Made by a program: the position numbers and the translations under genes. Positions 2,998 through 54,785 of a stretch of 64,000 nt of DNA are shown here, one piece after another; within the stretch, counting starts at the first letter, position 1, and every line of letters starts with the position of its first letter. The DNA is from Candidatus Moraniibacteriota bacterium (GTDB lineage Bacteria > Patescibacteriota > Minisyncoccia > Moranbacterales > UBA1568): NCBI GenBank assembly GCA_037133435.1, contig JBAXOD010000002.1:23545-87544 (forward strand), given 5' to 3'. The notes under the pieces were generated by a model, which did not search any database, was not told the DNA's origin, and saw nothing but the letters and a program-made list of their open reading frames with translations.

Positions 2998-3750
2998 CTA
3001 TCTGTTCTCCGAAACCGTTCCCGACCCGGTCAGTCCCGCGAACGGATCGATATGGATGTTCTCCGCCGCGATACCGATACCGAGGAGAAGCGCTTTCATG
3101 GCATCCGCGAATGCCGGTGCGCCTATCACATAATAGAGCGATTCCCGCCATTCTGGCAAGTATTTCCCTATCATTTCCGCACTGATACGGCCTCGTTCCT
3201 CGCCCGGCTCGGTTGAAGGTCCGGTCTCGGCCGACAAGGTGTACACGTAGGTGAAGTCCGGAAGAATGATCGCCCGGATTTCCGAATGGAATGGCACGTC
3301 CTTTTGAAAACGGTTCGACGATATCAGGACGTATTTTCTCGTGTCGTTTTTCGCGACCGCTTCCAGAAGCATCGACCGTGCCGGGGCCATACCGACGCCT
3401 CCCGACAGGATCGCTATCGGTCGTGAATCCCCTTCCGGAACGGTCGCGTTTCCGAGCGGAGCACTTACCGAGATTTCCTCGCCCGCCCTGAGGTCCCACA
3501 TGGTCTTCTTGAAACCCGTCATGCCCTCGCGCATCACGAATACCAGCTCGGCCTCGCTTGGCGCGGACGCAAGCGAAAGCGGGCGCATCCCGGCACGGAC
3601 GTCCGGCTCGACAAGCCGCTCAGCCGGCACCCGAAGCATCACATACTGCCCGGCACGATACGAGTACCCTTCCGGCTTGGAAAAAAAGAATGCGAGCGTG
3701 CGATCGGCGGTCTCCTCGACCCGAATCAACGTGATGGGATAGAATTCCAT
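2998..3750 (-). CDS. FNR-like oxidoreductase, FAD/NAD(P)-binding domain protein
   Basis: RPLSLAS (RxYS-type FAD motif) and GGVGMAP (GGxGxxP NAD(P) motif); 250 aa. Confidence 0.6.
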   Translation of the reverse strand: MEFYPITLIRVEETADRTLAFFFSKPEGYSYRAGQYVMLRVPAERLVEPDVRAGMRPLSLASAPSEAELVFVMREGMTGFKKTMWDLRAGEEISVSAPLGNATVPEGDSRPIAILSGGVGMAPARSMLLEAVAKNDTRKYVLISSNRFQKDVPFHSEIRAIILPDFTYVYTLSAETGPSTEPGEERGRISAEMIGKYLPEWRESLYYVIGAPAFADAMKALLLGIGIAAENIHIDPFAGLTGSGTVSENR

Positions 3751-3856
3751 ACTCCTAATTCTTTATTCTTTATTCATCATCTAACGATTGTCGAGGCGCT
3801 CGGAATCGCTCAGGCATTCGCTGGGCGTCCGGCGTATGTCGGACGAACCAGGGCGG

Positions 3857-4025
3857 GTCTACCTCCCCTGCGGAGCCACGACCGTCCACTGGATGGTCGG
3901 ACACGAATCTTGTCGGGGCACCCGGAATCGGACCGGGACTACCTCCCCTTCGGGGCCACGACCGTCCATCGGGACGGTCGGATAACGTTCTTGTCGGGGC
4001 ACCCGGAATCGGACCGGGACTACCT
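3857..4025. repeat. Two tandem ~84-bp units, each = tRNA-Pro 3' half (cttgtcggggcacccggaatcggaccgggactacct) plus a GC hairpin spacer
   Basis: Exact 36-bp copies at 3909-3944 and 3990-4025; flanking spacers ccacgaccgtcca...ggtcgga also repeated. Confidence 0.7.
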
Positions 4026-4064
4026 GCTCCCAAAGCAGACGTACTACCACTATACTATGCCCCG
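3994..4064 (-). tRNA. tRNA-Pro (anticodon TGG)
   Basis: Manual fold of reverse complement: acceptor CGGGGCA/TGCCCCG, anticodon stem TCTGC/GCAGG, loop TTTGGGA, T-arm CCCGG-TCCGATT-CCGGG. Confidence 0.8.
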
Positions 4065-4090
4065 ACTATTACCCCGACAATAACGCTATC

Positions 4091-4126
4091 CCCAAAGCAG
4101 ACGTACTACCACTATACTATGCCCCG
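4091..4126 (-). pseudogene. Orphan duplicate of tRNA-Pro(TGG) 5' half (through anticodon loop)
   Basis: cccaaagcagacgtactaccactatactatgccccg identical to 4029-4064 but lacks 3' half. Confidence 0.65.
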
Positions 4127-4369
4127 CCAAATAATTTCAATTTTCTCTTTACGGACGAGGCTCGCCCTGATGGGCGACCCGACAATGAACTCGTCCCCGA
4201 AGCAGGCGTACTACTGACATTCATATCTCTTCCCAGTCTACGGACTCTCCGGGAAAAAGCAATCCCGCCTCCTGAAAGAGGCGGGACGGCCCTATCTTTT
4301 ATTTCGTGCAGTACGGAACCCGCCAATGGAAAACCGTCCCTCCGACGGAATCCCGCGAATACTCGCGTA

Positions 4370-11989: not shown

Positions 11990-12150
11990 TTTGCAGGTTC
12001 ATGGTACAACCGTAAACCTAACTGTCACTATCTTCGATCTAACCGCAACTTTACCGATGATAAACCATGTGGTTCAGGGTACAACCCTGAACCTGCGGGA
12101 ACATGCCTGTTATAAATTCTCCCTTATAAAAGCCATAAATAAGATGGTTC
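11990..12150. repeat. Hairpin repeat family copy a (inverted orientation): ggttcagggtacaaccctgaacc + tcccttataaaagcca
   Basis: Reverse complement matches cgcaggttcagggttgtaccctgaaccac at 40243 and 49647. Confidence 0.6.
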
Positions 12151-19648: not shown

Positions 19649-19744
19649 TAGCCTCCAAAGCTTCGAAAGAGAAGCTTCGAGAACCTTGGCAAGAGGTCGG
19701 GAACACGGTTAAAATGAGGAGCCGTTCCCGTTCAATGGCACTTG

Positions 19745-19899
19745 GAGCCTATCCGTTAGGAACATACCTCCTGCGCCTAAAATCTTCGGCGTACACGCGC
19801 GTACCCCTTGTCGTCTTATCCAGATAGGGCTCCGCGGGTTACCCGCCTTTCCACTCGAAGCTTATACGGCTCGTGACGGAGACCCTGACGGATAGGCTC
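19745..19899 (-). mobile_element. 155-bp MITE-like element copy 1 (inverted relative to copies 2 and 3)
   Basis: Terminal inverted repeats gagcctatccgttagg / cctgacggataggctc; >85% identical to 22579-22735 and 32646-32800 after reverse complement. Confidence 0.65.
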
Positions 19900-19987
19900 T
19901 TATTCTCCTCCGAGTGTTCCCTGTTTACTGTTTACTGTTTACTGTTCATTGTTGTCAGTTGTCAGTGGTTAGTTATCAATCAAATAC

Positions 19988-20049
19988 GGAGAGATGACCG
20001 AGTGGTTGAAGGTACCGCTCTCGAAAAGCGGCAGGCCCGAAAGGGCCTC
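19988..20049 (+). pseudogene. 62-nt 5' fragment of tRNA-Ser(CGA) (acceptor through first half of T-loop), exact duplicate of 20391-20452
   Basis: ggagagatgaccgagtggttgaaggtaccgctctcgaaaagcggcaggcccgaaagggcctcgagggttcg identical in both copies; diverges inside T-loop. Confidence 0.75.
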
Positions 20050-20122
20050 GAGGGTTCGTCCGGCATACGCCGGACGCCCCGCGCATGCGGGGCGAATCCC
20101 ACATTTAAGGAGAAGGCTGCAT

Positions 20123-20386
20123 ATGTTCTATGTCTATATCCTCAGAAGCAAGAAAGACAATGACTTCTATATCGGGTCAACCGGAGATTTAAAAAGAAGA
20201 ATGAAAGAACATAATCGCGGAGTAGTGGAATCAACAAGACACAGACGACCTCTTGAACTCCTATGCTATGAAGCGTACAACTATAAAGAAGAAGCTCAAG
20301 CGAGAGAGCGTTTTCTAAAAAGCAGTGACGGAAAGAAAGATTTACGGAAACGATTGACTCGCAGTTTGGAAAAAAAGGAAAAATAA
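20123..20386 (+). CDS. Small GIY-YIG nuclease-domain protein (YhbQ/UPF0213-like)
   Basis: MFYVYILRSKKDNDFYIGSTGDLKRRMKEHN = GIY-YIG motif; AAGGAG SD 8 nt upstream of ATG at 20123; 87 aa. Confidence 0.75.
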   Translation: MFYVYILRSKKDNDFYIGSTGDLKRRMKEHNRGVVESTRHRRPLELLCYEAYNYKEEAQARERFLKSSDGKKDLRKRLTRSLEKKEK

Positions 20387-20390
20387 GTAC

Positions 20391-20477
20391 GGAGAGATGA
20401 CCGAGTGGTTGAAGGTACCGCTCTCGAAAAGCGGCAGGCCCGAAAGGGCCTCGAGGGTTCGAATCCCTCTCTCTCCT
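20391..20477 (+). tRNA. tRNA-Ser (anticodon CGA)
   Basis: Acceptor GGAGAGA/TCTCTCC, anticodon loop CTCGAAA, long variable arm CAGGCCCGAAAGGGCCTC, T-arm GAGGG-TTCGAAT-CCCTC. Confidence 0.85.
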
Positions 20478-20486
20478 CACTGAAAG

Positions 20487-20529: not shown

Positions 20530-20665
20530 AATGGGAAAAAGGGATTCGAAAGCCGGACTGCTAGCAGGCAGGAGGCGGGGTCGCGACCTCGAGCACGGCC
20601 TTCGGAGGCCGGACGCTCGAGAGTTGTGACCGAGTCCCTCCCTTTCCTCAAAAGCGAATGACCGT
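20530..20665 (+). ncRNA. Structured tRNA-Ser-derived element 1 (14-bp closing helix GGAAAAAGGGATTC/GAGTCCCTCCCTTTCC); candidate small RNA or pseudo-tRNA
   Basis: 3' end gagtccctccctttcctca resembles tRNA-Ser 3' end; sits between two terminators. Confidence 0.3.
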
Positions 20666-20706: not shown

Positions 20707-20790
20707 AAGAGGGATTCGAAGGGATATGGAAATGTGAACGATTTCACGTTTCCATGTCCCCGGCCCGCAGGGGAATCCCTCCCTTTCCTC
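20707..20790 (+). ncRNA. Structured tRNA-Ser-derived element 2 (closing helix GGAAGAGGGATTC/GAATCCCTCCCTTTCC, internal 13-bp hairpin ATGGAAATGTGAA/TTCACGTTTCCAT)
   Basis: Direct reading of complementary segments; immediately followed by terminator. Confidence 0.3.
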
Positions 20791-20796
20791 AACGGA

Positions 20797-21030: not shown

Positions 21031-22593
21031 ATGAGGATATCTTTGGAAAGTATTTTCTATCGCGTCATCCTTCCTTTCATGTTTCTTGAGGGATTTCTCC
21101 TGAGAATCGGCAATCTCAGAAAAGGTTTCTGGATCGACGAGTATCTCACCATCGAAACCGCACAGAAACTGACGTTTTTCAATCATACTGACACGGTCGG
21201 TCTCAACCCTTATTACGTCGGCCTCCGTCTGGTCGCATACCTCTTCGGTACCGACGAGACCGCCGTACGGATCATTTCCGTCCTGTTCGGTCTTGCGTCG
21301 GCATTCATCCTTTTCCTGATCGGAAAAAAATATTTTCACGAACGCGTCGGGCTCATCTCATCCTGTATCTTTCTGCTTACTCCCTTAGGCATATCGCTCG
21401 GTCAGGAAGTACGGCCATATTCCATGCTCCTTTTCCTTTCCCTGTGCCAACTATTTTTCTTTCTGGAAATATTGCAGTCCGTCTCCGAAGGTAAGCGGGT
21501 GAAAAATATCCGATTCATGCACCTCTCCGTCCTTACCCTGCTGATCCTGTTCATCCACCTGTCATCGGTATTATTCCTCGTCTCCGAAATGATCGTCCTT
21601 TCGTTCATAACGATCATCGAAAAACGGTGGCCGACGGACGTCTTCAAATATTATCTCGCTTGTTTGTTCCCGATGTTCGCGTTCTTCGCCTGGTTCTATC
21701 GTGACATCCTTACAAAACTCGGATTTATCGTTTCGGACCGGAATTACATTACCGTCTATTCAAACAGCGGACGCTCTTTCGCCGATGTGATCGTTTTCAT
21801 CCAGAATATCTCAACGGGACTCATCCCGGAGAAGCCAAAGGAGAGCCTGCTGGTATTCCTCCTTGCGCTCATTCTGATCGGAGCATCCATCGGCATTTGC
21901 CATTCTTTCATACGACGCGCCACGATCGTAAACGCCCTCTTTGGAATAACGATTCTCCGGATCTGCATCGGGCTGTCGATGCATGACTTCATTCCGAGAC
22001 ACGCGTTCATATTGACCCCTCTTTTTTCACTCTTTCTCGGAATATCCCTCTACAACCTTTCAAAAGTTCGCAGGGTTCCAAAGGTGGTCATTTTTTGCGT
22101 GTACGGATTCTTCATTCTGTCCCTCGCATATCTTTCACTGATTTCGCAGAAAGCCGAGAAAGCCGATCCGGGGAGACAATGGGGGTCGGTCGCCGATTTC
22201 GTCGAACGAAACGCCGGACCGGAAAAAGCGGTCATCGTGGCAGTCCCCTATCTGAAAGGGATATTCACCCATTATTATCATGGAACGACTCCGATCATCA
22301 CTATGGATGATTACAAGGAAAAATCACGAAATACCCTCATAGAGAACAATGAAATCGGTGTCTCGTTCATAAATCAAGAGCTGACCGATGCGTTGATCGG
22401 CAAGAGTATCGGGTTTCGAGAAATTCTGGTCGTCAAAGACGTTATCGCCTTAGATTTGAGCGATGTGGACAAACGCTTCGATACGGCTTTAGCAAGTCGT
22501 TTCATCCGGATCGATACAACCTGTTTCCCGGCTTCAGCGAAAATCCTGTGCGTCGAACGCTATCGAAGAGCCGACCAAGAGCCTATCCGTTAG
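21031..22593 (+). CDS. GT-C fold membrane glycosyltransferase (ArnT/PMT-like)
   Basis: ~12 TM, GFWIDE in first loop, N-terminal hydrophobic domain followed by C-terminal soluble domain; start at MRISLES. Confidence 0.5.
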   Translation: MRISLESIFYRVILPFMFLEGFLLRIGNLRKGFWIDEYLTIETAQKLTFFNHTDTVGLNPYYVGLRLVAYLFGTDETAVRIISVLFGLASAFILFLIGKKYFHERVGLISSCIFLLTPLGISLGQEVRPYSMLLFLSLCQLFFFLEILQSVSEGKRVKNIRFMHLSVLTLLILFIHLSSVLFLVSEMIVLSFITIIEKRWPTDVFKYYLACLFPMFAFFAWFYRDILTKLGFIVSDRNYITVYSNSGRSFADVIVFIQNISTGLIPEKPKESLLVFLLALILIGASIGICHSFIRRATIVNALFGITILRICIGLSMHDFIPRHAFILTPLFSLFLGISLYNLSKVRRVPKVVIFCVYGFFILSLAYLSLISQKAEKADPGRQWGSVADFVERNAGPEKAVIVAVPYLKGIFTHYYHGTTPIITMDDYKEKSRNTLIENNEIGVSFINQELTDALIGKSIGFREILVVKDVIALDLSDVDKRFDTALASRFIRIDTTCFPASAKILCVERYRRADQEPIR

Positions 22594-22735
22594 GGTCTCC
22601 GTCACGAGCCGTACGATCTTCGAGCGGAAAGGCGGGTAACCAGCGGATCCCTCTCCGTAGATACGGCGACAAGGGGTACGCGCGTGTACGCCGAAGATCA
22701 TAGGCGCAGGAGGTATGTTCCTAACGGATAGGCTC
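22579..22735 (+). mobile_element. 155-bp MITE-like element copy 2
   Basis: gagcctatccgttagg...cctaacggataggctc; overlaps stop codon of upstream gene. Confidence 0.65.
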
Positions 22736-22940
22736 TCAGTAGATGATAACAAACCCCCGAGTCAATCGATTCGCGATCCATCTTGTCACTCCGGTTTCAT
22801 TCCGATATCGTGATTGTCTGCGTCGAGAGGCTCCGGGAGCATTCCATGGTATCATCAGTGGGATAGGAATACCGGTAACCGGATATCGGAACAAGACAAA
22901 AAATCATATACCGAACGGCAAAAAACCACAGACAGAACCT

Positions 22941-30865: not shown

Positions 30866-32640
30866 ACGAGAACGAATCGGAAACCGTACCGAAAGTGGCC
30901 ATTCCGCCGACCATCACCGTGAAGGCGTTTTCCGATACCCTCGGACTGCCCGTCGCGCAGGTAATGACGGAACTCATGAAAAACGGCATCTTCGCGACCA
31001 TCAACGAGGAGATCGATTTCGATACCGCGAGCATCATCGCGACCGACCTCGGCATGGAGGCGGTCCCGGCCATCGAATCCGGCGATGCTGATAAGCCGCT
31101 CTCGCTCGAGGACATGCTTGACATCTGCGCGAAAGAAAAGAACTCGGACAAGCGCCTCGAGCCACGCGCACCGATCGTCACGATTCTCGGACATGTCGAC
31201 CACGGCAAGACCACGCTCCTCGACACGATCCGCAAGGCGAGCGTCGCGACCGGGGAAGCGGGTGGCATCACACAACATCTCGGCACCTATCAGGTCAAGA
31301 AGCGCGGCAAACTCATCACGTTCATCGACACCCCCGGACACGAGGCGTTTTCCGCGATGCGCAAGCGCGGCGTCTCTATCGCCGACATCGCCATCCTCGT
31401 CGTCGCGGCCGATGACGGCGTCCAGAAGCAGACCAAGGAAGTCATCACGTACCTCAAGGAGCGCGGACTCCCCATCATCGTGGCCATCAACAAGATCGAC
31501 AAGCCGGACGCGAATATCATGCGCATCAAGCAGGATCTTGCCGAGAATGACATCCTCATCGAAGAATGGGGCGGGAAAATCCTGTGCTCCGAGATCAGCG
31601 CGAAACAGAACGTCGGCATCGATTCACTGCTCGAAAACATCCTCCTCGTCAACGAGGTGGAAGAATTTTCCGCCGACGCGAAGCGCAGCGGACTCGCGGT
31701 CATCCTCGAATCGCACCTCGACAAGCAGAAGGGCCCAGTCGCCACGAGCCTGGTCCGGACCGGCACCCTCAAGGTCGGTCAGGACGTGATCGCCGGATCG
31801 GTCTTCGGCCGTATCCGTCATATGGAAAACTACGCCGGCAAGACCGTCGAATCCGCCGGTCCCTCGACGCCGGTCATCATCTACGGCTTCAGCGATACTC
31901 CGAAGGTGAACGACGTCGTTTCGGTCGCCAGCGGCAAGGCATCGGCACGGGTCCGTTCCGAACGGGCCCAGACGACCGCTAAGACCCTTATCAGGGCCAA
32001 ATCCGAGGAAGAAGGTGTCGAAGGTCCGAAGCGGCTTTCCTTCGTCCTCAAGGCGGATGTGGAAGGCTCGCTCGAGGCGATCGAACAGATTCTCGGTACC
32101 ATCGTCCACGACGAAGTCGCGCTCGAGGAGATTTCCTCCGGGGTCGGAGCCATCACCGAATCCGACGTGAAGATGGCGGAGAGCGCGGGGGCGGTCATCT
32201 TCGGATTCAACGTGGAACCGACCGCGGTCGCCCGACGCATGGCCGAAAAGAGCGGCACGGCGATCGAGAGCTTCGGAATCATTTATAAACTCGTCGACCG
32301 GGCGAAGGAGCGGCTGTCCGAGTTATTGCCGCCGGAAACGATACGCACCGATCTCGGCACCCTGTCCGTCCTCGCGGTCTTCAAGACCGGCAAACGCGAC
32401 CAGATCGTCGGCGGACGCGTCGGTAATGGAAAACTCTTCAAAGGTACGAAAGTCGACATCCGCCGCAAGGACGAGGTCGTCGGCACCGGTATCATCGTCA
32501 ATCTCCAGCAGAACAAACAGAACGTCGAGGAGGTCGGGCAGGGAAACGAATGTGGCGTCGTCTTCGAAGGCAATGCGAAAATCGCGGATGGGGATACGCT
32601 TCTCGTCTATCGCGAGGAAACGAAGCGCCGGACGCTCTAG
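30862..32640 (+). CDS. infB: Translation initiation factor IF-2 (short form)
   Basis: [12 protein letters not shown] (G1), DTPGHEAF (G3), NKID (G4), C-terminal beta-barrels; 592 aa. Confidence 0.9.
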
Positions 32641-32645
32641 ACTTA

Positions 32646-32800
32646 GAGCCTATCCGTCAGGGTCTCCGTCACGAGCCGTACGAGCTTCGAGCGAAAAGGC
32701 GGGTAACTTGCGGAGCCCTATCGAGATAAGGCGACAAGGGGTACGCGCGTGTACGCCGAAGATCATAGGCGCAGGAGGTATGTTCCTAACGGATAGGCTC
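32646..32800 (+). mobile_element. 155-bp MITE-like element copy 3
   Basis: gagcctatccgtcagg...cctaacggataggctc immediately after infB stop. Confidence 0.65.
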
Positions 32801-33015
32801 TTACATATAAGCATACCACGATTGCTTCTCGGTCAATTTTGCATTTTTTTCTGACACATGCTATCTGCACCGTATAATCCGTGGTAAATTGTTAGTTGTA
32901 CGCTTCTTGTTCAATGCTTTCTTCCCGCTCGTCCTTGCAAGCGGGTCCGCGCACGGAGATGTCGCGGATTATCTGTTGTAGGTTATCAGTGGTAAGTCGT
33001 TAGTCTTGCTTTCCT

Positions 33016-34530
33016 ATGGATTCTTCCGTCATCCCCGCACCGGTCCTCTCCGTCCTCGATGCCCTGAAATATGCCGGGTATCAGGGGCAGATCGTCGGCG
33101 GATGCGCGCGCGACCTGTTTCTCGGACGCGAACCGAAGGACTGGGATATCACGACCGATGCGAAACCGGAGGAGACGCTTTCCGTCTTCCCGGACAGTTT
33201 CTATGAGAACGATTTCGGGACGGTCGGCGTAAAAGTCGAGCCGTTCCACAAGGAAGGCCGTCCGGACCGCGAACACGACGTGATAGAAGTGACGACCTAT
33301 CGGACCGAATCCGGCTATTCGGACATGCGTCGGCCTGATCAGGTCGAATTCGTCCTATCGCTGTCCGAAGACCTTTCCCGGCGCGATTTCACGATGAACG
33401 CGATCGCGCTTCAGGTCAACGATCCGTCCCCGTCGCATACGGACCGGACCATCGACGTCATCGATCCGTTCCATGGCCAGGAAGACATCAACCGAAAGAT
33501 CATCCGGACGGTCGGCAACGCCGAACAACGCTTCGGCGAGGATGCACTGCGCATGATGCGGGCGATACGTTTCTCCTCCGAACTGGGCTCACCGGCTACG
33601 GAAGAAAGCGGATGGACGATCGAGGAACCGACGCTTGCGGCGATAGGAAAACACTCGGAACTGATCGCTCACGTCTCGCAGGAACGCATCCGCGACGAAT
33701 TATCGCGGATTATCCTCTCGGAGCGTCCGGCTGAAGGGGTCGAGCTGCTCCGGAGTGTCGGGTTGCTGAGATATATCATTCCAGAACTCGAGGAAGGCGT
33801 GGGTATCGGACAAAACCTCCATCATGCCCTTACCGTATACGAGCACAATCTCGGTGCGCTGCGATACTGCCCGTCGCGCGTGCTCGAAGTCAGGCTTGCG
33901 GCGCTGCTGCACGATGTCGGCAAACCCCGATCGAAGCGCGGCGACGGCTACAAGTCGACGTTCTACAATCACGACCATATCGGGGCCCGGATGACCAAGG
34001 TGATACTCCAAAGGCTTCGCTACCCCGTGGCCGTCATCGACCGGGTCACCCTGCTCGTGGACAACCATCTCTTCTATTACAATGTTGGCGAAGTGACCGA
34101 AGCCTCGGTTCGTCGGCTCATCCGACGCGTCGGCCTCGGGAACATGCGCGATCTTATGTCCGTCCGGATCGCGGATCGGCTCGGGTCGGGCGTCCCCAAA
34201 GCCAAACCGTATAAGTTGCGTCACTTGGAATACATGATCGAGAAGGTCTCAAACGACCCGGTCTCCGTCAAAATGCTCAAGATAAACGGCACGGATCTCA
34301 TGAACGACCTCAAAATGACGCCCGGACCGAAGATCGGCGCCGTGCTCGATGTCCTCCTTTCCGAAGTGATCGAAGATCCGTCACGTAACATCCGCGAGTC
34401 ACTCCTGGTACGCGCGAAAGAACTCTTCGAAGAGGATCTTTCTTCCCTTCGCGACCGCGCGAAAGACGTCATCGAGGAAAAACGCGAACAAGACGATAAG
34501 GGAATCAAAAACCGTCACAAGGTGGCGTAG
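33016..34530 (+). CDS. cca: CCA-adding tRNA nucleotidyltransferase with HD domain
   Basis: GGCARDLFLGREPKDWDITTD Pol-beta NTase motif; LLHDVGKP HD motif; 504 aa. Confidence 0.85.
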   Translation: MDSSVIPAPVLSVLDALKYAGYQGQIVGGCARDLFLGREPKDWDITTDAKPEETLSVFPDSFYENDFGTVGVKVEPFHKEGRPDREHDVIEVTTYRTESGYSDMRRPDQVEFVLSLSEDLSRRDFTMNAIALQVNDPSPSHTDRTIDVIDPFHGQEDINRKIIRTVGNAEQRFGEDALRMMRAIRFSSELGSPATEESGWTIEEPTLAAIGKHSELIAHVSQERIRDELSRIILSERPAEGVELLRSVGLLRYIIPELEEGVGIGQNLHHALTVYEHNLGALRYCPSRVLEVRLAALLHDVGKPRSKRGDGYKSTFYNHDHIGARMTKVILQRLRYPVAVIDRVTLLVDNHLFYYNVGEVTEASVRRLIRRVGLGNMRDLMSVRIADRLGSGVPKAKPYKLRHLEYMIEKVSNDPVSVKMLKINGTDLMNDLKMTPGPKIGAVLDVLLSEVIEDPSRNIRESLLVRAKELFEEDLSSLRDRAKDVIEEKREQDDKGIKNRHKVA

Positions 34531-34817
34531 AAAAAGATCAGTGAACAGGTAACAGATAAACATATATCAGGAAACGGGGGGATACATCGAGAACCGGCTG
34601 ATACCAGAGGAGAACAGCACTCGATACTCAATCACCCTGTTCTCATCATGTATACATTCCTGCAAATGACCGACCATTCCCGGTTCCCTTGTTCCTAGTT
34701 CTCCGTTCCCTGTTAACTGCTTTCCGTTATCTGATCGCCCCTTTCCTTTTTCCGATAACCTGCTAGAATGGAACCTGTTGTGATAAAGACGGATATTTCC
34801 CGAAACTGAGGGAAAAA

Positions 34818-35382: not shown

Positions 35383-35472
35383 GCCGAGGTGGCGCCCGCC
35401 CGCAACGCTTCGCGTAGCGATGCGGGCAGGAAACTGGTAGACGCACCAGGTTTAGGTCCTGGCGGGAGCAAG
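35383..35472 (+). pseudogene. Partial tRNA-Leu copy: acceptor+D-stem, 36-nt GC hairpin inserted in D-loop, anticodon arm, no T-arm
   Basis: gccgaggtggcg[cccgcccgcaacgcttcgcgtagcgatgcgggcagg]aaactggtagacgcaccaggtttaggtcctggcgggagcaag vs intact copy 12 nt downstream. Confidence 0.7.
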
Positions 35473-35483
35473 AAACGTATATT

Positions 35484-35570
35484 GCCGAGGTGGCGAAATT
35501 GGTAGACGCACCAGGTTTAGGTCCTGGCGGGAGCAATCCCTTGGGAGTTCGAGTCTCCCCTTCGGCACCA
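35484..35570 (+). tRNA. tRNA-Leu (anticodon TAG), CCA encoded
   Basis: Acceptor GCCGAGG, anticodon loop TTTAGGT, long variable arm, T-arm GGGAG-TTCGAGT-CTCCC, 3' ACCA. Confidence 0.85.
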
Positions 35571-40229: not shown

Positions 40230-40385
40230 AGACCGTCTTTACGCAGGTTCAGGGTTGTACCCTGAACCACGGGGTTTACAACCGATACCGAAGCTCTGAT
40301 ATGGAGAACCGACCTCCGGTAAGGTTCTGACACAGGGAGAGAAACATTTCGGAGCAGGGTACAACATTGCTCCAGTAAAGAATCG
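40230..40385 (+). repeat. Hairpin repeat family copy b: cgcaggttcagggttgtaccctgaaccac and ggagcagggtacaacattgctcc
   Basis: Matches 12071-12093 (inverted) and 49647-49673 / 49821-49843. Confidence 0.6.
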
Positions 40386-40432: not shown

Positions 40433-42769
40433 TCAATATCCCGCACCCGCGTCGAAATCGCGTTTGGCCTGTTCGATCTCAAGCAACTGCCGCGGATCCG
40501 TCGTAATGACCTGATCCTCGCTGTACGAAGCGATAACCTTGATCGCGACGTGTTTCGTCCCGGCGAAAAAGATTCCCTCTCCCACGTTCGATTCGAGCAA
40601 CAAGAACTTCTCGTGATCGGTCAGGTAAAAGAGATCCGCAATGAGATCAATCGAAGCCGGCGACTGTTTGAGGAGAAGCTGGATAGAGGAGTTTGTGACG
40701 ATCGGTTTACCGTAGCGTGACGCCATGAAATCGCCCACGTCCTGGGTGATGGTCGTCAGTCCCGCGAAGTACTTGCGGCACCGTTTCGCGATACCGAACA
40801 TGAATGCGGCGGCATCCTCGTTTTGCATCATGATCCACGCCTCGTCCACGACGATCAGCCGCTGTTTCATTTCCACGCGGATCTCGTTCCAGATGTACTG
40901 CAAGATGACGTACATCGCGATCGGCCGAAGCTCGCTCTCGAGGTCCCGGATATTGAAGACGATCATCTGCCGATTCAACGACACGTTTGTCTGGTGATTG
41001 AGGAACCCGCTGAAGACGCCCTCGGTATACTGTTCGAGCCGCGCCGCGAGCGATTCGGCACCTTCGACATTGCGAAGCACGGCATAGAGATCCGTCATGG
41101 TCGGGAACGATGCCGCGTCGAGAGAGCGGAAGTCCGACGATTCGGTGATGTCGCGGATGGCATATGTCTCGCGGATCGCACGGTCAAGGACGGAGTCCTC
41201 TTCCGGCGTCACCGCGCCGAGCATGAGGTGTAGCAATCCGATCAGGTTCGCGACATGACTGCGGAACACGCCCTGTTCATCTTCCGTCGCGGCGATTTTC
41301 GGAAGGTCGAACGGGTTCAGATGCGCGTCGGAGGCGAGCGAAATGTCGAGGAACGTCCCGCCGACCGTGTCGCACAGGTGCTTGTATTCCTGTTCCGGAT
41401 CGATGATGACGACGCTCGTCCCGAACATCATGGAACGCAGTATCTCGAGTTTGATGGTATAGCTTTTTCCGGCGCCGGATTTCGCGAAGACGACCATGTT
41501 GGCGTTTTCCATGCGGAACCGGTCGAACAGGACGAGCGAATTGTTGTGCCGGTTGATCCCGTAGAGTATCCCCTCGTTCGAGGACAAATCGGAAGACACG
41601 AACGGAAACGTGGTGGACAAGGGCGAGGTGTTCAGATTGTTCGCGATATCGAGCAGGTCCATGCCCAAAGGCCTCGTGGAGATGAATCCCTGATCCATCC
41701 GCAGCACGGCCTGCTTCGTGAAGACGAGCTGCGCCTCGAGTATGGACTCGATGTTTCTGGAAATGTCGTTGAGTGCCTTCTCATCGGCCGCATAGACGGT
41801 CATGTAGAGTCCGAATCGGAAGAATTTCTCCGTCCCCTGCTGCAGACGGTCGCGAAGATCCTGGATGTTCTCGAGTGCGGCTTCGAGCATAGGATCGCGG
41901 ACCTTGCCGCCTTCGGCCTCGATGCCGATCTGCGAACGGACGTGCGTCTCGGACGCACGCAACTCACGCATGATCTCACGCGTGTCGACCGGATGAATAA
42001 GGAAGCCGACGTCCATCGGGGCGTCGATATTCACGATCGGGGAAAACCAGTTCGTCCCGAGGTATTTCGGATACGCGATGACGAAATGCGTCCGCGCGAA
42101 CACGCTGCCGACATGGAAAAAGCTCGGTGACATGCGTATCGCCGGCGGTGCGATGAGATCCTTGAGACTCGCGACGCCCTTGCGATAGAGCTCTTCCGAT
42201 TCGGTGCTGCCATGTGAAGAAAATACGGAGGTCAAAAATCCGCCCTTGCCGCCGCCGGCCGATTTCTGCTTGGAGGAAGGCCGTTCGACCTCCGCCGAAT
42301 ACGGAATGACCTCCTCCTCGAAACCGGACGGGCGTGAGTAAGGTGCGGCTGATTCCGAACCAGGTGCGGGAATACGGGACGATTCCGCTTCGACAGCGGA
42401 AGGAAGAGGCTCTACCGTAACCGGCGGCGTATCAAAAGAACGCGCCGGCGCGGGTTCGGATGATGCCGGTTGCGACGACCACGAGGCATACGCGGGCGCC
42501 GCCGATTCCGCCACCGGGATCGGTGCGGGTACCGGAGTCGGTTGCACTGCGGGAGTGGCCGCGACCGGGGGCGTCGACACGACCGGAGCGTCGAAATACT
42601 TCGGCTCCGGCGCGGAAGCGGGAGTCGGGATCGGTGCTGGCGCGGGTGCGGCCGGAACGGGTGCCGGTCCCGAAGGAGATGCTGTACCGCCGCCGGCATC
42701 ACTTAATCCGAGCAGTTCCATGATGAGCGCTTTGCGCTGTTCCGGATCCAATTGTGCTGGTGTAGGCAT
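40433..42769 (-). CDS. VirB4/TrbE/CagE-family T4SS ATPase with ~180-aa Pro/Ala-rich N-terminal extension
   Basis: Walker A VVFAKSGAGKSYT, Walker B LIVVDEAW, CagE_TrbE_VirB N-domain block FHVGSVFARTHFVIAYPKYLGTNWFSPIVNIDAPMDVGFLIHP. Confidence 0.8.
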   Translation of the reverse strand: MPTPAQLDPEQRKALIMELLGLSDAGGGTASPSGPAPVPAAPAPAPIPTPASAPEPKYFDAPVVSTPPVAATPAVQPTPVPAPIPVAESAAPAYASWSSQPASSEPAPARSFDTPPVTVEPLPSAVEAESSRIPAPGSESAAPYSRPSGFEEEVIPYSAEVERPSSKQKSAGGGKGGFLTSVFSSHGSTESEELYRKGVASLKDLIAPPAIRMSPSFFHVGSVFARTHFVIAYPKYLGTNWFSPIVNIDAPMDVGFLIHPVDTREIMRELRASETHVRSQIGIEAEGGKVRDPMLEAALENIQDLRDRLQQGTEKFFRFGLYMTVYAADEKALNDISRNIESILEAQLVFTKQAVLRMDQGFISTRPLGMDLLDIANNLNTSPLSTTFPFVSSDLSSNEGILYGINRHNNSLVLFDRFRMENANMVVFAKSGAGKSYTIKLEILRSMMFGTSVVIIDPEQEYKHLCDTVGGTFLDISLASDAHLNPFDLPKIAATEDEQGVFRSHVANLIGLLHLMLGAVTPEEDSVLDRAIRETYAIRDITESSDFRSLDAASFPTMTDLYAVLRNVEGAESLAARLEQYTEGVFSGFLNHQTNVSLNRQMIVFNIRDLESELRPIAMYVILQYIWNEIRVEMKQRLIVVDEAWIMMQNEDAAAFMFGIAKRCRKYFAGLTTITQDVGDFMASRYGKPIVTNSSIQLLLKQSPASIDLIADLFYLTDHEKFLLLESNVGEGIFFAGTKHVAIKVIASYSEDQVITTDPRQLLEIEQAKRDFDAGAGY

Positions 42770-42773
42770 ATGT

Positions 42774-43460
42774 TTATCTTCCGGTCAGTTCCACCGACTC
42801 GATATTCTTGACCACCGACGACGTGAACAACGAAGGGTTGTACGAATTATACAAAAGCTCGATGACCTCTTCGGTACCCAAAAGCGTGGTCCGGACGCCG
42901 GTACCCATGAGTGCCGACGCGACCAGATCGGCGCGCTGGAACAGCTGGTTCTTGTACGTCTCGAACACCTCTCCGCCGATGAACGTCTGCTTGACCGGAT
43001 TGAATATGCCGCCCATCTTCGTGAAAAAACCGCCCTCTTTCGTCTCGGAAGGGGCGAACGGTACCACGACAAAGAACGATTTCGACATGATATTCGAGAC
43101 ATCGGTCAGACTCTTGATGAAATTCGCGTATTCCGAAATCTGGAACCGCAAAAGGTCATTCTCCTGGGTCTTTTCCTGTTGCTTGAGCTTCTCGAGATAC
43201 GGCTCGATGCGGAAACGGCGCGAGTGCACGATAATCTGGAGCGGAAAATCAAGCGAGTTGAGGAAATTCTGATACTGTATGATGATCGCATCCTGCTCGT
43301 CGGTCGATTTGAGGTCGAAGTTGATGGAAGACGCGAGCAGCACCGCCCGGATGGAGCCGTTGCGCAGTATCATGACGCCGTCGCGGACTTCCTCGACGTC
43401 CACGTACTTTTGTGTGCTCGCGGCGTCCGATTCCTTTTTGTTGTCGGTGATGCGTTCCAT
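42774..43460 (-). CDS. Hypothetical T4SS-associated protein; N-region resembles the extreme N-terminus of Gram-positive VirB4 (PrgJ/TcpF-type)
   Basis: DGVMILRNGSIRAVLLASSINFDLKSTDEQDAIIIQYQNFLNSLDFPLQIIV; 4-nt gap to VirB4 start. Confidence 0.4.
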   Translation of the reverse strand: MERITDNKKESDAASTQKYVDVEEVRDGVMILRNGSIRAVLLASSINFDLKSTDEQDAIIIQYQNFLNSLDFPLQIIVHSRRFRIEPYLEKLKQQEKTQENDLLRFQISEYANFIKSLTDVSNIMSKSFFVVVPFAPSETKEGGFFTKMGGIFNPVKQTFIGGEVFETYKNQLFQRADLVASALMGTGVRTTLLGTEEVIELLYNSYNPSLFTSSVVKNIESVELTGR

Positions 43461-43490
43461 AGTTTTCCGTGGTTGTGTGTTTTTCCTCCG

Positions 43491-43889
43491 CTATTTCCGG
43501 TCCACCGCCTCCGCTATGCGGCGTATCTCCGCTTCCGTGATCCTCCGCTCGGGCGCGACCGATCCGGTATCGATCTTTTTCGGAAGAGTCTTCTGTACTG
43601 GCTTCCCGAGCGGCCTTCGCCACATCATGACCTTCGGATTGAAGAGAAAAAAGAATCCGTAGATCACGAAAAGGAGGAGTGGCTGACCGTTCGGCCTGTA
43701 AAACGCGAGGAGACAGAAAATGATGATGATCGGTATGGAAACCAGGTAGATCGCGATGCCGTCACCGATGATGAACTTGGCGACCAGGATGGTCGTCCCC
43801 ATCCCGATCATCCACAAAAGTTGCTTCCCGGTGAGCGGTCCGGCGATCTTGTCTTCCACGTCGACAAATTGCGGTACGTTGAATATCAT
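43491..43889 (-). CDS. PrgI-family (VirB3-like) small membrane protein
   Basis: MIFNVPQFVDVEDKIAGPLTGKQLLWMIG N-terminus typical of PrgI; two TM helices. Confidence 0.6.
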   Translation of the reverse strand: MIFNVPQFVDVEDKIAGPLTGKQLLWMIGMGTTILVAKFIIGDGIAIYLVSIPIIIIFCLLAFYRPNGQPLLLFVIYGFFFLFNPKVMMWRRPLGKPVQKTLPKKIDTGSVAPERRITEAEIRRIAEAVDRK

Positions 43890-49479: not shown

Positions 49480-49860
49480 AAAATAAATTCTCACTTTTCC
49501 CTTATAAAAGCCACAAACGAAACATTTTCCCGATCAAATTTTCGGCCCGTAAGGTCATTTCGCGGGCTCAGGACTGCGCCCAGCACCGTACGGTACTGAG
49601 TCGTACCTCGTACCAGACGGTACGGGGTTGTACTCTAAACCTTTTCGCAGGTTCAGGGTTATACCCTGAACCACATCGTTTACGGCCGATGATGTGATTT
49701 CGACTTGTCAAACTATACCCTGCCGAGGCTAAGTCTTGGCAAACCAGCCTCCGCTCTAGCTTCGGCTTGGCAAGCCAGACTCCGCTCTAGCTTCGGCCTG
49801 GAAGGGAGAAAGAATGTTTCGAAGCAGGGTGCAACCCTGCTCCTGCAATAAAATTACATC
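49480..49860 (+). repeat. Hairpin repeat family copy c plus internal tandem 30-bp repeat (ggcaaaccagcctccgctctagcttcggc x2)
   Basis: tcccttataaaagccacaaa, cgcaggttcagggttataccctgaaccac, gaagcagggtgcaaccctgctcc. Confidence 0.6.
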
Positions 49861-49937
49861 TGATACGCGATAGCGTAGCAAATGTAACTTTTCGAAAATA
49901 TCTCAAATTTGATAATACTGCTACAGGTTGCCAATCC

Positions 49938-50150
49938 ATCCCCGTTCCCCTTTCAAAATTCGAAATTCAAAATTGCCCTGACCTCGTCCCCAACCCGTTA
50001 ACTCGTTAACCCGTGAACCGAATAACATCCCCTCCCGTTCCCCTTTCAAAATTCGAAATTCAAAATTCAAAATTGCTTTGACCTCGTTCCCAACACGTTA
50101 ACTCGTTAACCCGTGAACCGAATAACATCCCCTCCCGTTCCCGTTGTAAG
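49938..50150 (+). repeat. Two and a fraction tandem ~91-100-bp direct repeats containing ttcaaaattcgaaattcaaaattgc and cgttaactcgttaacccgtgaacc
   Basis: Units 49938-50028 and 50029-50128; third copy of the AT-rich core at 51346-51410 on the other side of the recombinase gene. Confidence 0.7.
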
Positions 50151-50193
50151 TTGTTAGGAGTAAGTTGTGAGTGGTAAGTTGTCAGTCTGTCCC

Positions 50194-51177
50194 TCATTTC
50201 TTCCGTTTCTTCGCATGAAATTCCTCATGAATCTCGCGGAGCCGTTCGTTCGTCACATGGGTATACACCTGGGTAGTGGTAATGGAAGAATGGCCCAGCA
50301 TCGCCTGCACGGAACGGATGTCCGCCCCGTTTTGCAACAGATCGGTCGCGAAGGAGTGCCTCAGCGTGTGTGGATGGACATCCTTGACGATGCCGGCCTT
50401 GGCGGCGTATTTCTTCACCAATCGCTGTATACTCCGTTCGGTAAGCCGCATTCCGGCGTGTCCCTGCCGTTCCTTGGGCGCGCGTTTCGACTTGGGGATG
50501 GCGATAAAGAGCGCCTTGTCCATATCGCTTCGCTTTTCCAAATATCGCATAAGCGAATCTCGTGCGTCATCGGAGAGGAACACTACGCGGAGCTTGGATC
50601 CCTTGCCGCGCACGCTGAATTCACCCTTTTTCAGGTTCACCGAATCGCGATCAAGCGAAGTGAGCTCGGAAACGCGCAATCCTGCGGAAAACAGCAGTTC
50701 GAGGATCGCCCGGTCACGCAGAGCGCGAAGCGACCCGCCCGAAGCGGCAGCAAGGAGCCGTTCCACCTCGTCGAGCTCGAGAAACCCTACCTCGCGCGTC
50801 GGCGCCTTGCCGACCGCGATCTTCTCGGCCGGTACGGTATATTCGTCTTCGCGGGCCAGGTACTTGAGAAACGAACGAAGCACCACGATATGATATGTCT
50901 GGGTCGACTTACGGAGCGTTTCGCCACGCTCGTTGGTGACACGATTAAGCGAGAGACGGTATTCCCGGACACGTTCTGCCGTGATATCCGCCGGACTCTT
51001 GATGCCGCTCATTTCGAAAAACTTCCACAACGAACGCGTATAACTCTCAAGCGTCCGCGGAGAACGGTTCAGCTCTATCTCGAGATGTTCGAGAAACCGC
51101 TTCGCGAGCGCTTCGATCCGAGTCTCTGATTTCGGTGTCCCTGCATTCATATCCATTAAGTATACATGAAAAGTCAC
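50194..51177 (-). CDS. Tyrosine site-specific recombinase (XerC/XerD/phage-integrase family)
   Basis: C-terminal HTLRHSFATDLLQNGADIRSVQAMLGHSSITTTQVYTHV with catalytic R..H..R..Y. Confidence 0.85.
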   Translation of the reverse strand: MTFHVYLMDMNAGTPKSETRIEALAKRFLEHLEIELNRSPRTLESYTRSLWKFFEMSGIKSPADITAERVREYRLSLNRVTNERGETLRKSTQTYHIVVLRSFLKYLAREDEYTVPAEKIAVGKAPTREVGFLELDEVERLLAAASGGSLRALRDRAILELLFSAGLRVSELTSLDRDSVNLKKGEFSVRGKGSKLRVVFLSDDARDSLMRYLEKRSDMDKALFIAIPKSKRAPKERQGHAGMRLTERSIQRLVKKYAAKAGIVKDVHPHTLRHSFATDLLQNGADIRSVQAMLGHSSITTTQVYTHVTNERLREIHEEFHAKKRKK

Positions 51178-51545
51178 TTGTAAGGTGCGAGAAGTCGGTT
51201 CCCCATCCCCGCTCCCCGCTCCCTTCCTGCTCCACTGCCTGAGGGGAGCTCCCGTGGTTTTGCACGGGTGAGGGGTGGGAGAAGTTGCCCATCCTTATCC
51301 CCGCTCCTCACTTCTCACTCCTCATTCCTGTCCCCACTCCCCGCTCCCGTTCCCGTCCCCATTTCAAAATTCGAAATTCAAAATTCAAAATTGCTGAGAC
51401 CCTGTTCCTTATTATCTGCTCAGTGTTAACTGAAGTTATCCCTTATTCAAGGGTAAAGCTACCTATTTCACCATCAATTTTCGTTGACATTGCCCCCCTG
51501 CGGAAGCTATACTCGATTCCATATAACACCTTAGGGCGCCGGCGT

Positions 51546-53766: not shown

Positions 53767-54104
53767 CAATCATTATTTTCAAAAGTTGCGAGTGAGTGCC
53801 CCGTACTTTCTTCCTGTTCCCCTGCCAGAGGAGGATTATCTGACAACAAGGAAAATGATCCGTTGAGTCTTCGAAACTGAAGGTTGGGAGAAATTCCCCG
53901 CATCCTTGACTTGCCACGGCCTCCGCGGCTTCGCAAAGACCGAAGGTATCACGCTCCCGTTCCCTGCTATCTGCTCAATGTTATCTGCTCCCTGATCCCT
54001 GACTCATGTTCCCTGTCTCATGTTATCTGTTCTCTGTTGTCAGTAGTTAGTTGTAAGTTGTCAGTGGTTAGTTGTCAGTTATAGGTTATCAGTCGTCAAT
54101 TCTT

Positions 54105-54785
54105 CTACAACACCTCCACGGTCTTCGGTTTGCGCGCCGTGAAAGAATACAGCCGCGCCGGGCGACTCTGTCCCGACTGGCGGACTTTCCCTGTTTCTTT
54201 GACAAGTTCGATATCCAAGATCTTCTTGCGAAAATTCCGCTTGTCGAGCTCGTGCCCGAGAATGATCTCGTAGACGGTCTGCAGTTCGGTCAGGGTGAAT
54301 TCCTTGGGCAGGAGTCCGTACGCGATATTGGAATATCCGATTTTGCTTCTGAGCCGATCGACGCCGACTGAGACGATCTTCGCGTGATCGAACGCCATCT
54401 TCGGCAAATGCGCCGTATCGTGCCAGGCGATATCGGAATAATATTCGATGGTCGAGGGAAGGCACCGGTCGCTGTTCACGAGCGCGAAATATGCCGTCGA
54501 GACACTCCGCCCACGAACATCACGATCCACACCTCCAAACGTGAATAACTGTTCCAGATAAATATCATCGACACCGGCCTTTTCCGAAAGGATTCGTTCC
54601 GCGGCCTGATCGAGGGATTCATCCATACGGACCAATCCGCCGGGCAACGCCCATTTCCCTTCGTAGGGACCGCTGCCGATCCGGATAAGCAACACCCTGA
54701 GCGCTCCGTCGATGACGGAAAAAATGGCGGTGTCGACCGCGATCAGTATCGACTGGCCGAGTGGCGGCGTGACATTTTTTTTCAT
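54105..54785 (-). CDS. nrtR: NrtR-type Nudix-related transcriptional regulator of NAD metabolism
   Basis: N-terminal degenerate Nudix domain (GKWALPGGLVRMDESLDQAAERILSEKAG) plus C-terminal winged-helix region; flanked by nadM/nadV. Confidence 0.7.
   Translation of the reverse strand: MKKNVTPPLGQSILIAVDTAIFSVIDGALRVLLIRIGSGPYEGKWALPGGLVRMDESLDQAAERILSEKAGVDDIYLEQLFTFGGVDRDVRGRSVSTAYFALVNSDRCLPSTIEYYSDIAWHDTAHLPKMAFDHAKIVSVGVDRLRSKIGYSNIAYGLLPKEFTLTELQTVYEIILGHELDKRNFRKKILDIELVKETGKVRQSGQSRPARLYSFTARKPKTVEVL

Follow-up and report, generated by a model that had tools for sequence, protein, structure and literature searches.

A 64,000-nucleotide stretch of the genome of Candidatus Moraniibacteriota bacterium (contig JBAXOD010000002.1, positions 23,545 to 87,544 of the forward strand), here called the window, carries G/T-rich tandem arrays with a seven-nucleotide unit in four of its intergenic spacers. 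One array lies just before a 5' fragment of a tRNA-Ser gene, one before cca, which encodes the CCA-adding enzyme, one at the 3' end of a tyrosine recombinase gene, and one between nadM-Nudix (plus strand) and nrtR (minus strand); the coordinates are collected in Table 1. An earlier note on this DNA had pointed to a recurrent G/T-rich motif at these places, and the three motif strings that it quoted do occur there. The window is contained in a longer contig of 111,776 bp (ENA ERZ4200879 NODE_72), where a fifth G/T-type array, 6.4 kb to the left of the window and in the same polarity, overlaps the stop codon of a minus-strand gene.

The recurrence of the motif is real. Allowing at most one mismatch, the degenerate two-unit pattern GTTRTNAGTNGTNAG matches the window 14 times against 0.18 expected by chance, and all 14 matches fall on the plus strand and inside the four sites. 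With up to three mismatches, TTGTCAGTGGTTAG gives nine matches against 2.27 expected, a number that none of 100 shuffled sequences reached. The arrays had been placed within about 60 bp of gene boundaries, and their association proves tighter than that, with right (3') ends 3-10 nt away at all four sites. The tRNA-Ser 5' end (19988) follows after 9 nt, the cca ATG (33016) after 10 nt, the stop codon of the recombinase (50194-50196) after 6 nt and that of nrtR (54105-54107) after 3-5 nt. The position before tRNA-Ser thus holds, but the neighbour there is a 71-nt fragment (19988-20058) and not an intact gene. Likewise, the motif does form short tandem arrays, but instead of standing alone as a 14-mer it makes up the G/T-rich end of degenerate heptamer tracts of greater length (19908-19984 and 53961-54101), and other heptamer families occupy other spacers.

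Table 1. Heptamer tracts of the window, the genes adjoining its G/T-rich arrays, and expanded cca loops of related loci
Feature	Coordinates	Strand	Units, setting or source
Short ATTCTTT tract	3741-3787	+	At and before the 5' end of an oxidoreductase gene on the minus strand, towards tRNA-Pro
Tract 1	19908-19984 (19908-19978 in lag-7 list)	+	TGTTCCC, (CTGTTTA)x3, TTGTCAG x2, TGGTTAG, TTATCA
tRNA-Ser 5' fragment	19988-20058	+	99% identical to 20391-20461 (family D9); adjoined by tract 1
Tract 2	32961-33005	+	ATTATCT GTTGTAG GTTATCA GTGGTAA GTCGTTA GTC
cca, CCA-adding enzyme	33016-34530	+	Pfam; adjoined by tract 2
TTCCCTG-type tract	34673-34728 (34685-34721 in lag-7 list)	+	Between cca stop codon and tRNA-Pro(cgg)
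TTCAAAA tract	49936-49976	+	Lag-7 list; run 49952-49974
TTCAAAA tract	50032-50084	+	Lag-7 list; run 50045-50074
Tract 3	50143-50187	+	GTTGTAA GTTGTTA GGAGTAA GTTGTGA GTGGTAA GTTGTCA GTC
Tyrosine recombinase (Phage_integrase family)	50194-51156	-	Pfam, gene calls; 3' end adjoined by tract 3
CCCCGCT tract	51199-51233	+	Lag-7 list
CTCCTCA tract	51292-51349	+	Lag-7 list
Third TTCAAAA tract	51351-51402	+	Lag-7 list; run 51363-51392
Tract 4	53961-54101 (54007-54098 in lag-7 list)	+	20 units, one register
nrtR (Nudix and NrtR winged-helix domain)	54105-54785	-	Pfam, gene calls; 3' end adjoined by tract 4
Expanded cca loop, L009	10376-10498		123 nt
Expanded cca loop, L031	8374-8481		108 nt
Expanded cca loop, L010	10415-10519		105 nt
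Expanded cca loop, L018	10376-10474		99 nt
Expanded cca loop, L044	1938-2027		90 nt

Seven nucleotides is the dominant short period of the window. In a sliding self-comparison, which scored a position when at least 24 of 35 nucleotides matched at a given lag, lag 7 yielded 113 positions, lag 9 two weak ones, and lags 3-6, 8 and 10-12 none; Tandem Repeats Finder (TRF) returned rows of period 7, 14 or 21 at all sites. The lag-7 positions make up ten tracts in eight spacers, all of them in the non-coding DNA that constitutes about 18% of the window. Two tracts touch genes called from open reading frames (ORFs), and they do so only at uncertain starts. The one at 3741-3787 overlaps the ORF-based start of the oxidoreductase gene (3750), and the 512-aa ORF called for LysM-CHAP passes through those at 51292-51402, the database call for that gene beginning downstream at 51546. 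Head-to-tail 7-nt units in runs of at least three, dispersed over many mostly intergenic loci (the ten tracts and the one beyond the window), make these sequences heptanucleotide tandem repeats.

The tracts differ in length and composition. Tract 2 is a shorter site that falls outside the ten lag-7 tracts and was recovered as a member of repeat family D2. Tract 4 opens with a C-rich block of 11 units (TCCCTGC/TATCTGC/CTCATGT) and continues with a G/T block of nine (TGTCAGT/AGTTAGT/TGTAAGT). Such a gradient, from C-rich units (TCCCTGC, TATCTGC) at the left to G/T units at the right, gives the long tracts their polarity. The TTCAAAA/TTCGAAA runs at 49952-49974 and 50045-50074 sit inside a 100-bp tandem duplication (49939-50138; families D5 and D6), the C-rich tracts and the third TTCAAAA run (51199-51408) fill the spacer from which the recombinase and LysM-CHAP genes diverge, and TCCCTGA is another unit among the tract types of the window.

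Comparison of units within arrays points to how the arrays grew. Using the arrays of the window and of two relatives' loci (L004 and L087), we found that the mean Hamming distance between units rises from 2.2 at a separation of one or two units to 3.1 at seven and 4.2 at twelve, and none of 5000 within-array permutations made neighbouring units as much more alike than distant ones as they are (p<0.0002). Similarity that falls with separation is the signature of local tandem duplication. Units two apart are as similar as adjacent ones and TRF reports periods of 14 and 21 nt, so one, two or three units are evidently duplicated at a time, which is what slipped-strand mispairing would be expected to do within a tract that is already periodic.

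The strongest evidence for a mutational origin at the DNA level comes from inside a gene. Among 80 cca loci surveyed, the loop that follows the RRDFTxNA motif measures 30-39 nt (10-13 residues) in most and 20 residues in the window, and in the largest expansions it reaches 90 to 123 nt (Table 1). The expanded loops have a lag-7 identity of 0.51-0.61 compared with roughly 0.2-0.3 at lags 5, 6, 8 and 9. The insertions stay in frame, add 20-30 residues, and encode 7-residue peptide repeats (for example, REQGTTN REQGTGS REQ), and their units, CAGGGAA, CAGCGAA and CTAACAA, agree with the consensus of the spacer arrays. Selection on the protein cannot make a 7-nt period, which argues that a mutational process acting on the DNA produces arrays of this kind and that they survive wherever the host can bear them.

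Related genomes reveal arrays that stay in place while their contents change. In the genome collection the nearest cca genes, with 75-77% amino-acid identity, belong to metagenome-assembled genomes of Candidatus Moranbacteria/Moraniibacteriota, and farther matches come from other Patescibacteria. In the syntenic locus L004 the tRNA-Ser array occupies 130 nt (77 nt in the window), consists of TTGTTAG, TTGTCAG, TGGTTAG and TTATCAG units, and stops 7 nt short of an intact tRNA-Ser gene; TTGTCAGTTGTCAGTC stands 5 nt upstream of the cca ATG in L004, which has an extra array between two type IV secretion system (T4SS) genes that in the window are separated by a spacer of 30 nt. In L005 the tRNA-Ser array is down to four degenerate units, and no array precedes cca. 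Three relatives of the nrtR locus, all with 81-82% NrtR identity, differ just as much. The 11 C-rich and nine G/T units of the window compare with five and six in L087, right after the stop codon; the array is vestigial in L088 and absent from L089. Polarity of G/T arrays and tracts is the same in L004 and L087 as in the window. Owing to additional indels, total length differences between orthologous arrays are not clean multiples of 7. Taken together, these comparisons indicate that position and orientation are inherited, that unit number and sequence turn over quickly, and that the arrays are dispensable. No short period is as common as 7 either in 1.25 Mb of Patescibacteria loci or across 0.46 Mb of unrelated NrtR loci, and the heptamer density of the window is about four times that of Moranbacteria-like and unrelated loci and about twice that of other Patescibacteria loci.

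The earlier note had suggested a binding-site array, and these observations do not favour one made of sequence-specific operators. The highly degenerate units merge gradually into heptamers of a quite different kind; orientation to the adjacent gene is mixed, two arrays running sense in 5' leaders and three running antisense at 3' ends; among relatives of equal closeness the arrays may be retained, shortened or missing; and similar arrays occur within the cca coding loop of other lineages. An operator array for a transcription factor was rejected on the same kind of grounds, the units being degenerate, the arrays being lost or resized in relatives at 75-82% protein identity, and some of them lying at gene 3' ends. 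Most likely the arrays grow by unit-wise duplication and are not specific protein-binding arrays.

Tandem heptamers have a long history in another phylum. They have served as fingerprinting targets in cyanobacteria since 1990, the year in which Mazel and colleagues reportedly described the short tandemly repeated repetitive (STRR) heptamers of heterocystous species. Like the STRR sequences, the tracts of the window comprise several heptamer families side by side in intergenic spacers; they differ in phylum, the host being a member of the candidate phyla radiation (CPR), and in genome size, roughly 1 Mb for the CPR genome against 6-9 Mb for the cyanobacterial ones. Within the library searched, we found no paper linking Patescibacteria to heptamer repeats. 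The units themselves are common to the two groups, as BLAST searches of 72,556 plasmids brought out. The G/T array matched five records, four from Nostoc/Trichormus and one a Pantoea coding sequence, and the TTCAAAA run matched 12, all from filamentous cyanobacteria. In the Nostoc flagelliforme plasmid pNFSY06 the match reads TAGTCAG (TTGTCAG)x4 TTATCAA TTATCAG and adjoins a start codon. Through these Nostocales matches the window shares units with cyanobacterial families: identical TTGTCAG/TTATCAG and TTCAAAA units occur in plasmids of Nostoc, Trichormus, Calothrix and Tolypothrix, a comparison that does not extend to the classical STRR1-3 units themselves. Pradhan et al. (bioRxiv 10.1101/2022.06.06.494920) also list TTCAAAA/TTTTGAA repeats that precede genes of Nostoc 7120, and their unit is that of the window at 49952-50074 and 51363-51392.

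Another close parallel is provided by the intergenic TAACTGA repeats that MacGregor (2015, PMC4679880) described from Beggiatoaceae, cyanobacteria and a few Bacteroidetes, whose function is unknown and which often adjoin start codons without a Shine-Dalgarno sequence, mixed with other heptamers. The arrays of the window are likewise tandem 7-nt units, mostly intergenic, that lie a few nucleotides from start or stop codons with other heptamers among them. GTTATCA, a cyclic form of the reverse complement of TAACTGA, occurs in three of the four window arrays (the recombinase array is the exception), and the dominant unit, CTGACAA, is one base from CTGATAA. A Shine-Dalgarno sequence is missing where a repeat adjoins a start codon, and sets of repeats with one chromosomal orientation, as seen here, were noted by MacGregor in Microcystis. 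There are differences as well. The window has no tandem run of exact TAACTGA, only isolated GTTATCA and TTATCAG; the array upstream of cca is reversed, and the forward orientation follows stop codons rather than preceding start codons; and the window units are far more degenerate, in a host (a Patescibacterium) outside the distribution that MacGregor gave.

Two further classes offer partial comparisons. By MacGregor's account (PMC4679880), Mrazek et al. (2007) found heptanucleotides to be the most abundant of the long simple-sequence repeats (SSRs; units of 5-11 nt) and proposed polymerase slippage as their origin. Period 7 is likewise dominant in the window and in the 1.7 Mb of comparison loci, but such surveys, as far as that account conveys them, scored near-perfect repeats, whereas the tracts of the window are old and degenerate and show position-specific conservation. 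Phase-variable (contingency) SSRs are near-perfect repeats, placed inside an ORF or between -35 and -10, with length alleles in the population; the repeats here are imperfect and lie outside ORFs, and three assemblies of one population carry them in identical form (see below). The second class is that of the GGGNATC and GGGGA(C/T)T heptamers of Xanthomonas and Nostoc, which form G-quadruplexes and lie in intergenic DNA no more than 50 bp from ORF ends (Rehm et al., 2015, PMC4692102). Heptamer unit and placement near ORF ends agree, but the G/T arrays lack G runs and cannot form a G-quadruplex. Only their C-rich neighbours fit: in the spacer separating the divergent recombinase and LysM-CHAP genes, heptamer units on the minus strand make up G-quadruplex motifs at 51201-51223 and 51332-51360 (GGGAGCGGGGAGCGGGGATGGGG; GGGGACGGGAACGGGAGCGGGGAGTGGGG).

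On balance, with slightly more confidence than an even chance would warrant, we regard the four sites as G/T-rich ends of tandem repeats with degenerate 7-nt units, members of the STRR, "TAACTGA-like" or long-SSR class, made by duplication and loss of units, decayed by point mutation, and tolerated where they lie. One to three 7-nt units would be duplicated or lost through replication slippage or unequal exchange in a 7-nt register; the duplicated units would then diverge through point mutation; and tracts would persist where extra DNA is tolerated, as in spacers adjoining genes or, among relatives, in a loop on the surface of the CCA enzyme. The observations establish the periodicity, the class, the location in non-coding DNA, the mark of local duplication, the turnover among relatives and the presence within coding sequence; slippage as the generating process, and the lack of a dedicated function, are inferred. 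Effects on neighbouring genes would be secondary, the arrays acting perhaps as an unstructured GU- or AC-rich leader or trailer, as spacing, or as a substrate for rearrangement.

Several observations sit uneasily with this account. No length polymorphism appeared among three assemblies of the same population (ERZ4200879, ERZ27299975 and SRR12676967), compared over contigs with identical flanking proteins and found to be 100% identical, and degenerate units should make poor substrates for slippage. Nor does the account supply a cause for the 7-nt register itself. Neutral decay of duplicated units should blur all positions of the unit equally, but conservation within it is unequal. Nor does passive decay explain the single register kept across the 20 units of tract 4, the one strand polarity common to all tracts, or the abutment of arrays on genes, all five G/T arrays ending at most 12 nt from the right-hand gene in spacers of 240-916 nt. 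Lastly, cca lacks a Shine-Dalgarno sequence in three genomes (the window, L004 and L003), and in the window the array occupies its expected place. On a further reading, which we regard as improbable, the tracts are not passive, and conserved machinery common to Patescibacteria and filamentous cyanobacteria lays down, or reads, polar GTT/AAC tracks of 7-nt period that start at gene boundaries and have one chromosomal polarity; it could be a templated or primase/polymerase-linked process, or a single-strand binder that forms rings or filaments.

The unequal conservation is best seen in a consensus of 51 units read on the minus strand, with the phase chosen to maximise C at position 1. The result, CWGANAA, has C1 in 45 of the 51 units, A7 in 41, A6 in 35 and A4 in 31, and position 5 is free; on the plus strand this amounts to GTT every 7 nt. 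The data do not refute a binding array of low specificity, in which GTT/AAC recurs as a periodic track. In its fullest form, this alternative holds that a single-strand (RNA or single-stranded DNA) binder, or the ribosome, reads AAC/GUU every 7 nt and so controls translation, stability or processing of the adjacent transcript. The (UAG-N4)3 site of HutP is a formal analogue of such a track. Conservation of C1, A6 and A7 and the register held across 20 units would fit, as would the position of arrays 3-12 nt from start codons, stop codons or a tRNA 5' end, and the arrays are kept at orthologous sites of L004 and L087. Tract 2 lies within the putative cca 5' leader, in which there is no Shine-Dalgarno sequence, a feature kept in L004 and L003, and because the arrays are unstructured, they would be accessible to a single-strand binder. 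Similar proposals have been made for other heptamers. MacGregor (PMC4679880) suggested binding by S1, Csp or CsrA-like proteins for the TAACTGA repeats, and Pradhan et al. (bioRxiv 10.1101/2022.06.06.494920), who found that deletion of heptamer repeats altered reporter output in Nostoc/E. coli, proposed a similar role for the heptamers of Nostoc recF/recO. That said, the same track would be read as GU-rich in the cca and tRNA leaders and as AC-rich after the three stop codons, L005 and L089 have lost arrays while keeping the genes though equally close, unit families differ widely among spacers, like arrays occur within a coding loop, and no candidate factor has been identified. We consider such a track unlikely and prefer unit-wise duplication and decay.

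Polarity invites a different explanation. The earlier note had offered a strand-specific G/T-rich signal, and as a description this is accurate: all 14 motif matches, the five G/T arrays and the tracts of eight spacers share one polarity over 71 kb, the plus strand being pyrimidine- or T-rich in every one of the eight whatever the orientation of the flanking genes. Two of the G/T arrays are sense in 5' leaders (cca and tRNA-Ser), and three follow stop codons of minus-strand genes, where a transcript would read CUGACAA-like. The polarity might reflect a replication or segregation signal specific to a chromosome strand, such as skewed oligomers or cues for a primase or translocase, and the uniform polarity of L004 and L087 and the same-orientation sets of Microcystis (PMC4679880) can be cited in its favour. 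It is the link with replication direction that lacks support. A first count, in which array polarity agreed with GC skew in 34 of 49 cases, was confounded by cca-internal arrays and by several tracts per spacer; once the former were removed and spacers de-duplicated, agreement in related loci fell to 9 of 21. Polarity in syntenic loci is inherited and so is not independent evidence, inverted pairs of arrays occur within single spacers of L016, L019 and L074, and a code that orients the whole genome would need more arrays, less clustered, than these. A replication signal is, in our estimation, very improbable.

The inverted pairs are of some interest in themselves. Heptamer arrays of the GGAATCA/TGATTCC types at 9872-10000 in L016, about 11490-11600 in L019, and 6724-6933/9641-9779 in L074 are arranged so that they could form long hairpins. 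The pair in L016 lies between infB and cca and is followed by a T run, which gives it a terminator-like look.

The arrays might also serve transcription, either as promoter boxes (TTGTCA, a -35-like sequence) or as pause or termination arrays acting on rightward transcription before the right-hand gene. TTGTCA is one mismatch from TTGACA, and TTGTCA-16-TATCAA stands 8 nt before the tRNA-Ser fragment; every array lies immediately left of a gene boundary; and the hairpin and T run between infB and cca in L016 can be read in the same sense. A consensus scan, however, called neither promoters nor terminators inside any array, and better promoter-like sites lie upstream (19686-19715, and CTGACA-16-TATAAT at 32851-32878). 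The putative -10 is not kept in L004 or L005, and the arrays have neither a hairpin nor a T run. Folding of both strands showed no structure beyond that of shuffled sequences, z-scores for the transcribed strands of the arrays ranging from -0.3 to -1.0, except for the plus strand of tract 1 (z = -2.7, from pairing of ACUGUUUAC with GUGGUUAGU), a value that we do not treat as meaningful. Transcription signals therefore strike us as highly improbable. An intrinsic terminator or structured RNA was rejected, with no terminator call, weak folds, and an Rfam scan of the whole window that identified only five tRNAs and no family matching the arrays. CRISPR arrays, DnaA boxes and parS were rejected on inspection, the repeats being of period 7 with no spacers and those consensus sequences being unmatched, and a phage collection gave no match. 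As a separate observation, the cca ATG is preceded in three genomes by a conserved TTC(T)CCT, which is anti-Shine-Dalgarno-like (window 33000-33018; L004; L003).

Some arrays share more than a unit, and this raises the possibility that they are paralogous copies of a small, polar, dispersed element with CTCCCGTTCCC as its head, heptamers as its body and ..CAGTC as its tail, spread by copying, gene conversion or recombinase-linked rearrangement and not grown separately in place. CTCCCGTTCCC, which precedes tract 3, occurs exactly four times in the window, always on the plus strand and at the left edge of arrays. The tail ..AGTC stands just before the gene in three of the four window arrays (the tRNA-Ser array ends in ..ATCAATC) and in both L004 arrays, tracts 1 and 4, whose unit types follow one another in the same order, give a 64-nt alignment at 72-75% (family D3), and direct repeats of 58 nt that include a TTCAAAA run flank the recombinase gene (family D5). 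Moreover, L088 has the recombinase-LysM-nadM block turned round with respect to nrtR, the breakpoints being at the two G/T arrays. Other findings speak against such an element. With one mismatch allowed, CTCCCGTTCCC occurs seven times against 2.1 expected, which is marginal, and because three of its four exact copies belong to one local repeat family (D5/D6), the independent support is thin. What varies between orthologous arrays is how many units they have, not whether a fixed element is there; periodic sequences of any origin can be aligned with one another in many registers; and there are no target-site duplications or terminal inverted repeats. A dispersed element is accordingly quite improbable, and unit-wise duplication and decay is again the reading we prefer.

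The window holds a number of other repeats. Those flanking the recombinase gene, 90% identical, lie at 50033-50090 and 51351-51408, and the left one is part of the 100-bp tandem duplication. In the region 19988-20478, the tRNA-Ser(cga) gene next to tract 1, which is uninterrupted in L004 and L005, was apparently struck at its T-loop (GGTTCG^AATCC) by a cassette of about 400 bp. In order, there follow the tRNA fragment (19988-20058), a hairpin (TCCGGCATACGCCGGA..), an 87-aa GIY-YIG ORF (20123-20386) which, unlike cca, has an AAGGAG ribosome-binding site, and the intact tRNA-Ser(cga) gene (20391-20478), whose first 71 nt and 6-nt leader duplicate the fragment at 99% identity. The junction of T-arm and hairpin, GGTTCGTCCGGCATACGCCGGACG, recurs in inverted form at 3814-3849 on the minus strand, beside the tRNA-Pro(tgg) gene (3993-4064), itself surrounded by 81-nt and 62-nt partial self-duplications (3854-4025 and 4029-4133). 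The recurrence points to a family of small elements with tRNA T-loops as their targets. Downstream of tRNA-Ser, 3'-end fragments of the gene (GAATCCCTCCCTTTCCTCA) are repeated at 20634-20655 and 20776-20795 in the window and at 3343-3362 and 3486-3500 in L004, each preceded by a short unrelated segment; they look like stacked remnants of the attachment (att) sites of integrative elements. The 5' part of tRNA-Leu(tag) is also duplicated just upstream of the gene (42 nt, 98% identical; 35430-35471 and 35495-35536).

Other repeats are larger or palindromic. An element of about 165 nt has three copies, 86-99% identical, at 19740-19910 (inverted), 22568-22740 and 32639-32801. It has 17-nt terminal inverted repeats (AGAGCCTATCCGTYAGG) and forms a single long hairpin, imperfectly paired (-69.7 kcal/mol, z = -4.3). 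Two of its copies begin exactly at preceding stop codons (one of them that of infB), and it has no Rfam match; it looks like a miniature inverted-repeat transposable element (MITE) or a REPIN. A palindromic element resembling repetitive extragenic palindromes (REPs), CGCAGGTTCAGGGTTGTACCCTGAACC, is found in three copies and both orientations (12061-12097, 40242-40287 and 49646-49682). A small gene and its downstream hairpin are tandemly duplicated (16330-16629/16852-17151 and 16248-16308/16772-16832), with 83% identity over 300 nt at a distance of 522 nt. Type IV secretion genes occupy the minus strand at 40433-43889 and include a VirB4/TraG-like P-loop ATPase, a TraC-like gene and a PrgI-like gene; a T4SS gene set of this type has been described for Patescibacteria.

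The heptamer tracts have some practical consequences. They break short-read assemblies (one Logan contig ends within a TTCAAAA run), and they can mislead ORF calling, as they did for LysM-CHAP; two G/T arrays also coincide with inversion breakpoints, as noted above. What is new here is the presence in a CPR phylum (Candidatus Moranbacteria) of a class of heptamers long known from cyanobacteria but functionally unexplained. The same units (TTGTCAG/TTATCAG, TTCAAAA and G-run units) occur in a minimal-genome CPR bacterium and in filamentous cyanobacteria, and together with the one polarity, the GTT/AAC phase, the position at gene boundaries and, in relatives, the expansion of a loop of the essential CCA enzyme, this argues for a general, sequence-biased process at the DNA level rather than a cyanobacterial peculiarity. 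The small gene set of CPR bacteria narrows the search for whatever fixes the 7-nt register. A Moranbacteria genome has only about 1000 genes, so that, if conserved machinery does lay down or read the tracks, the factor could be found by intersecting the gene sets of repeat-rich lineages.

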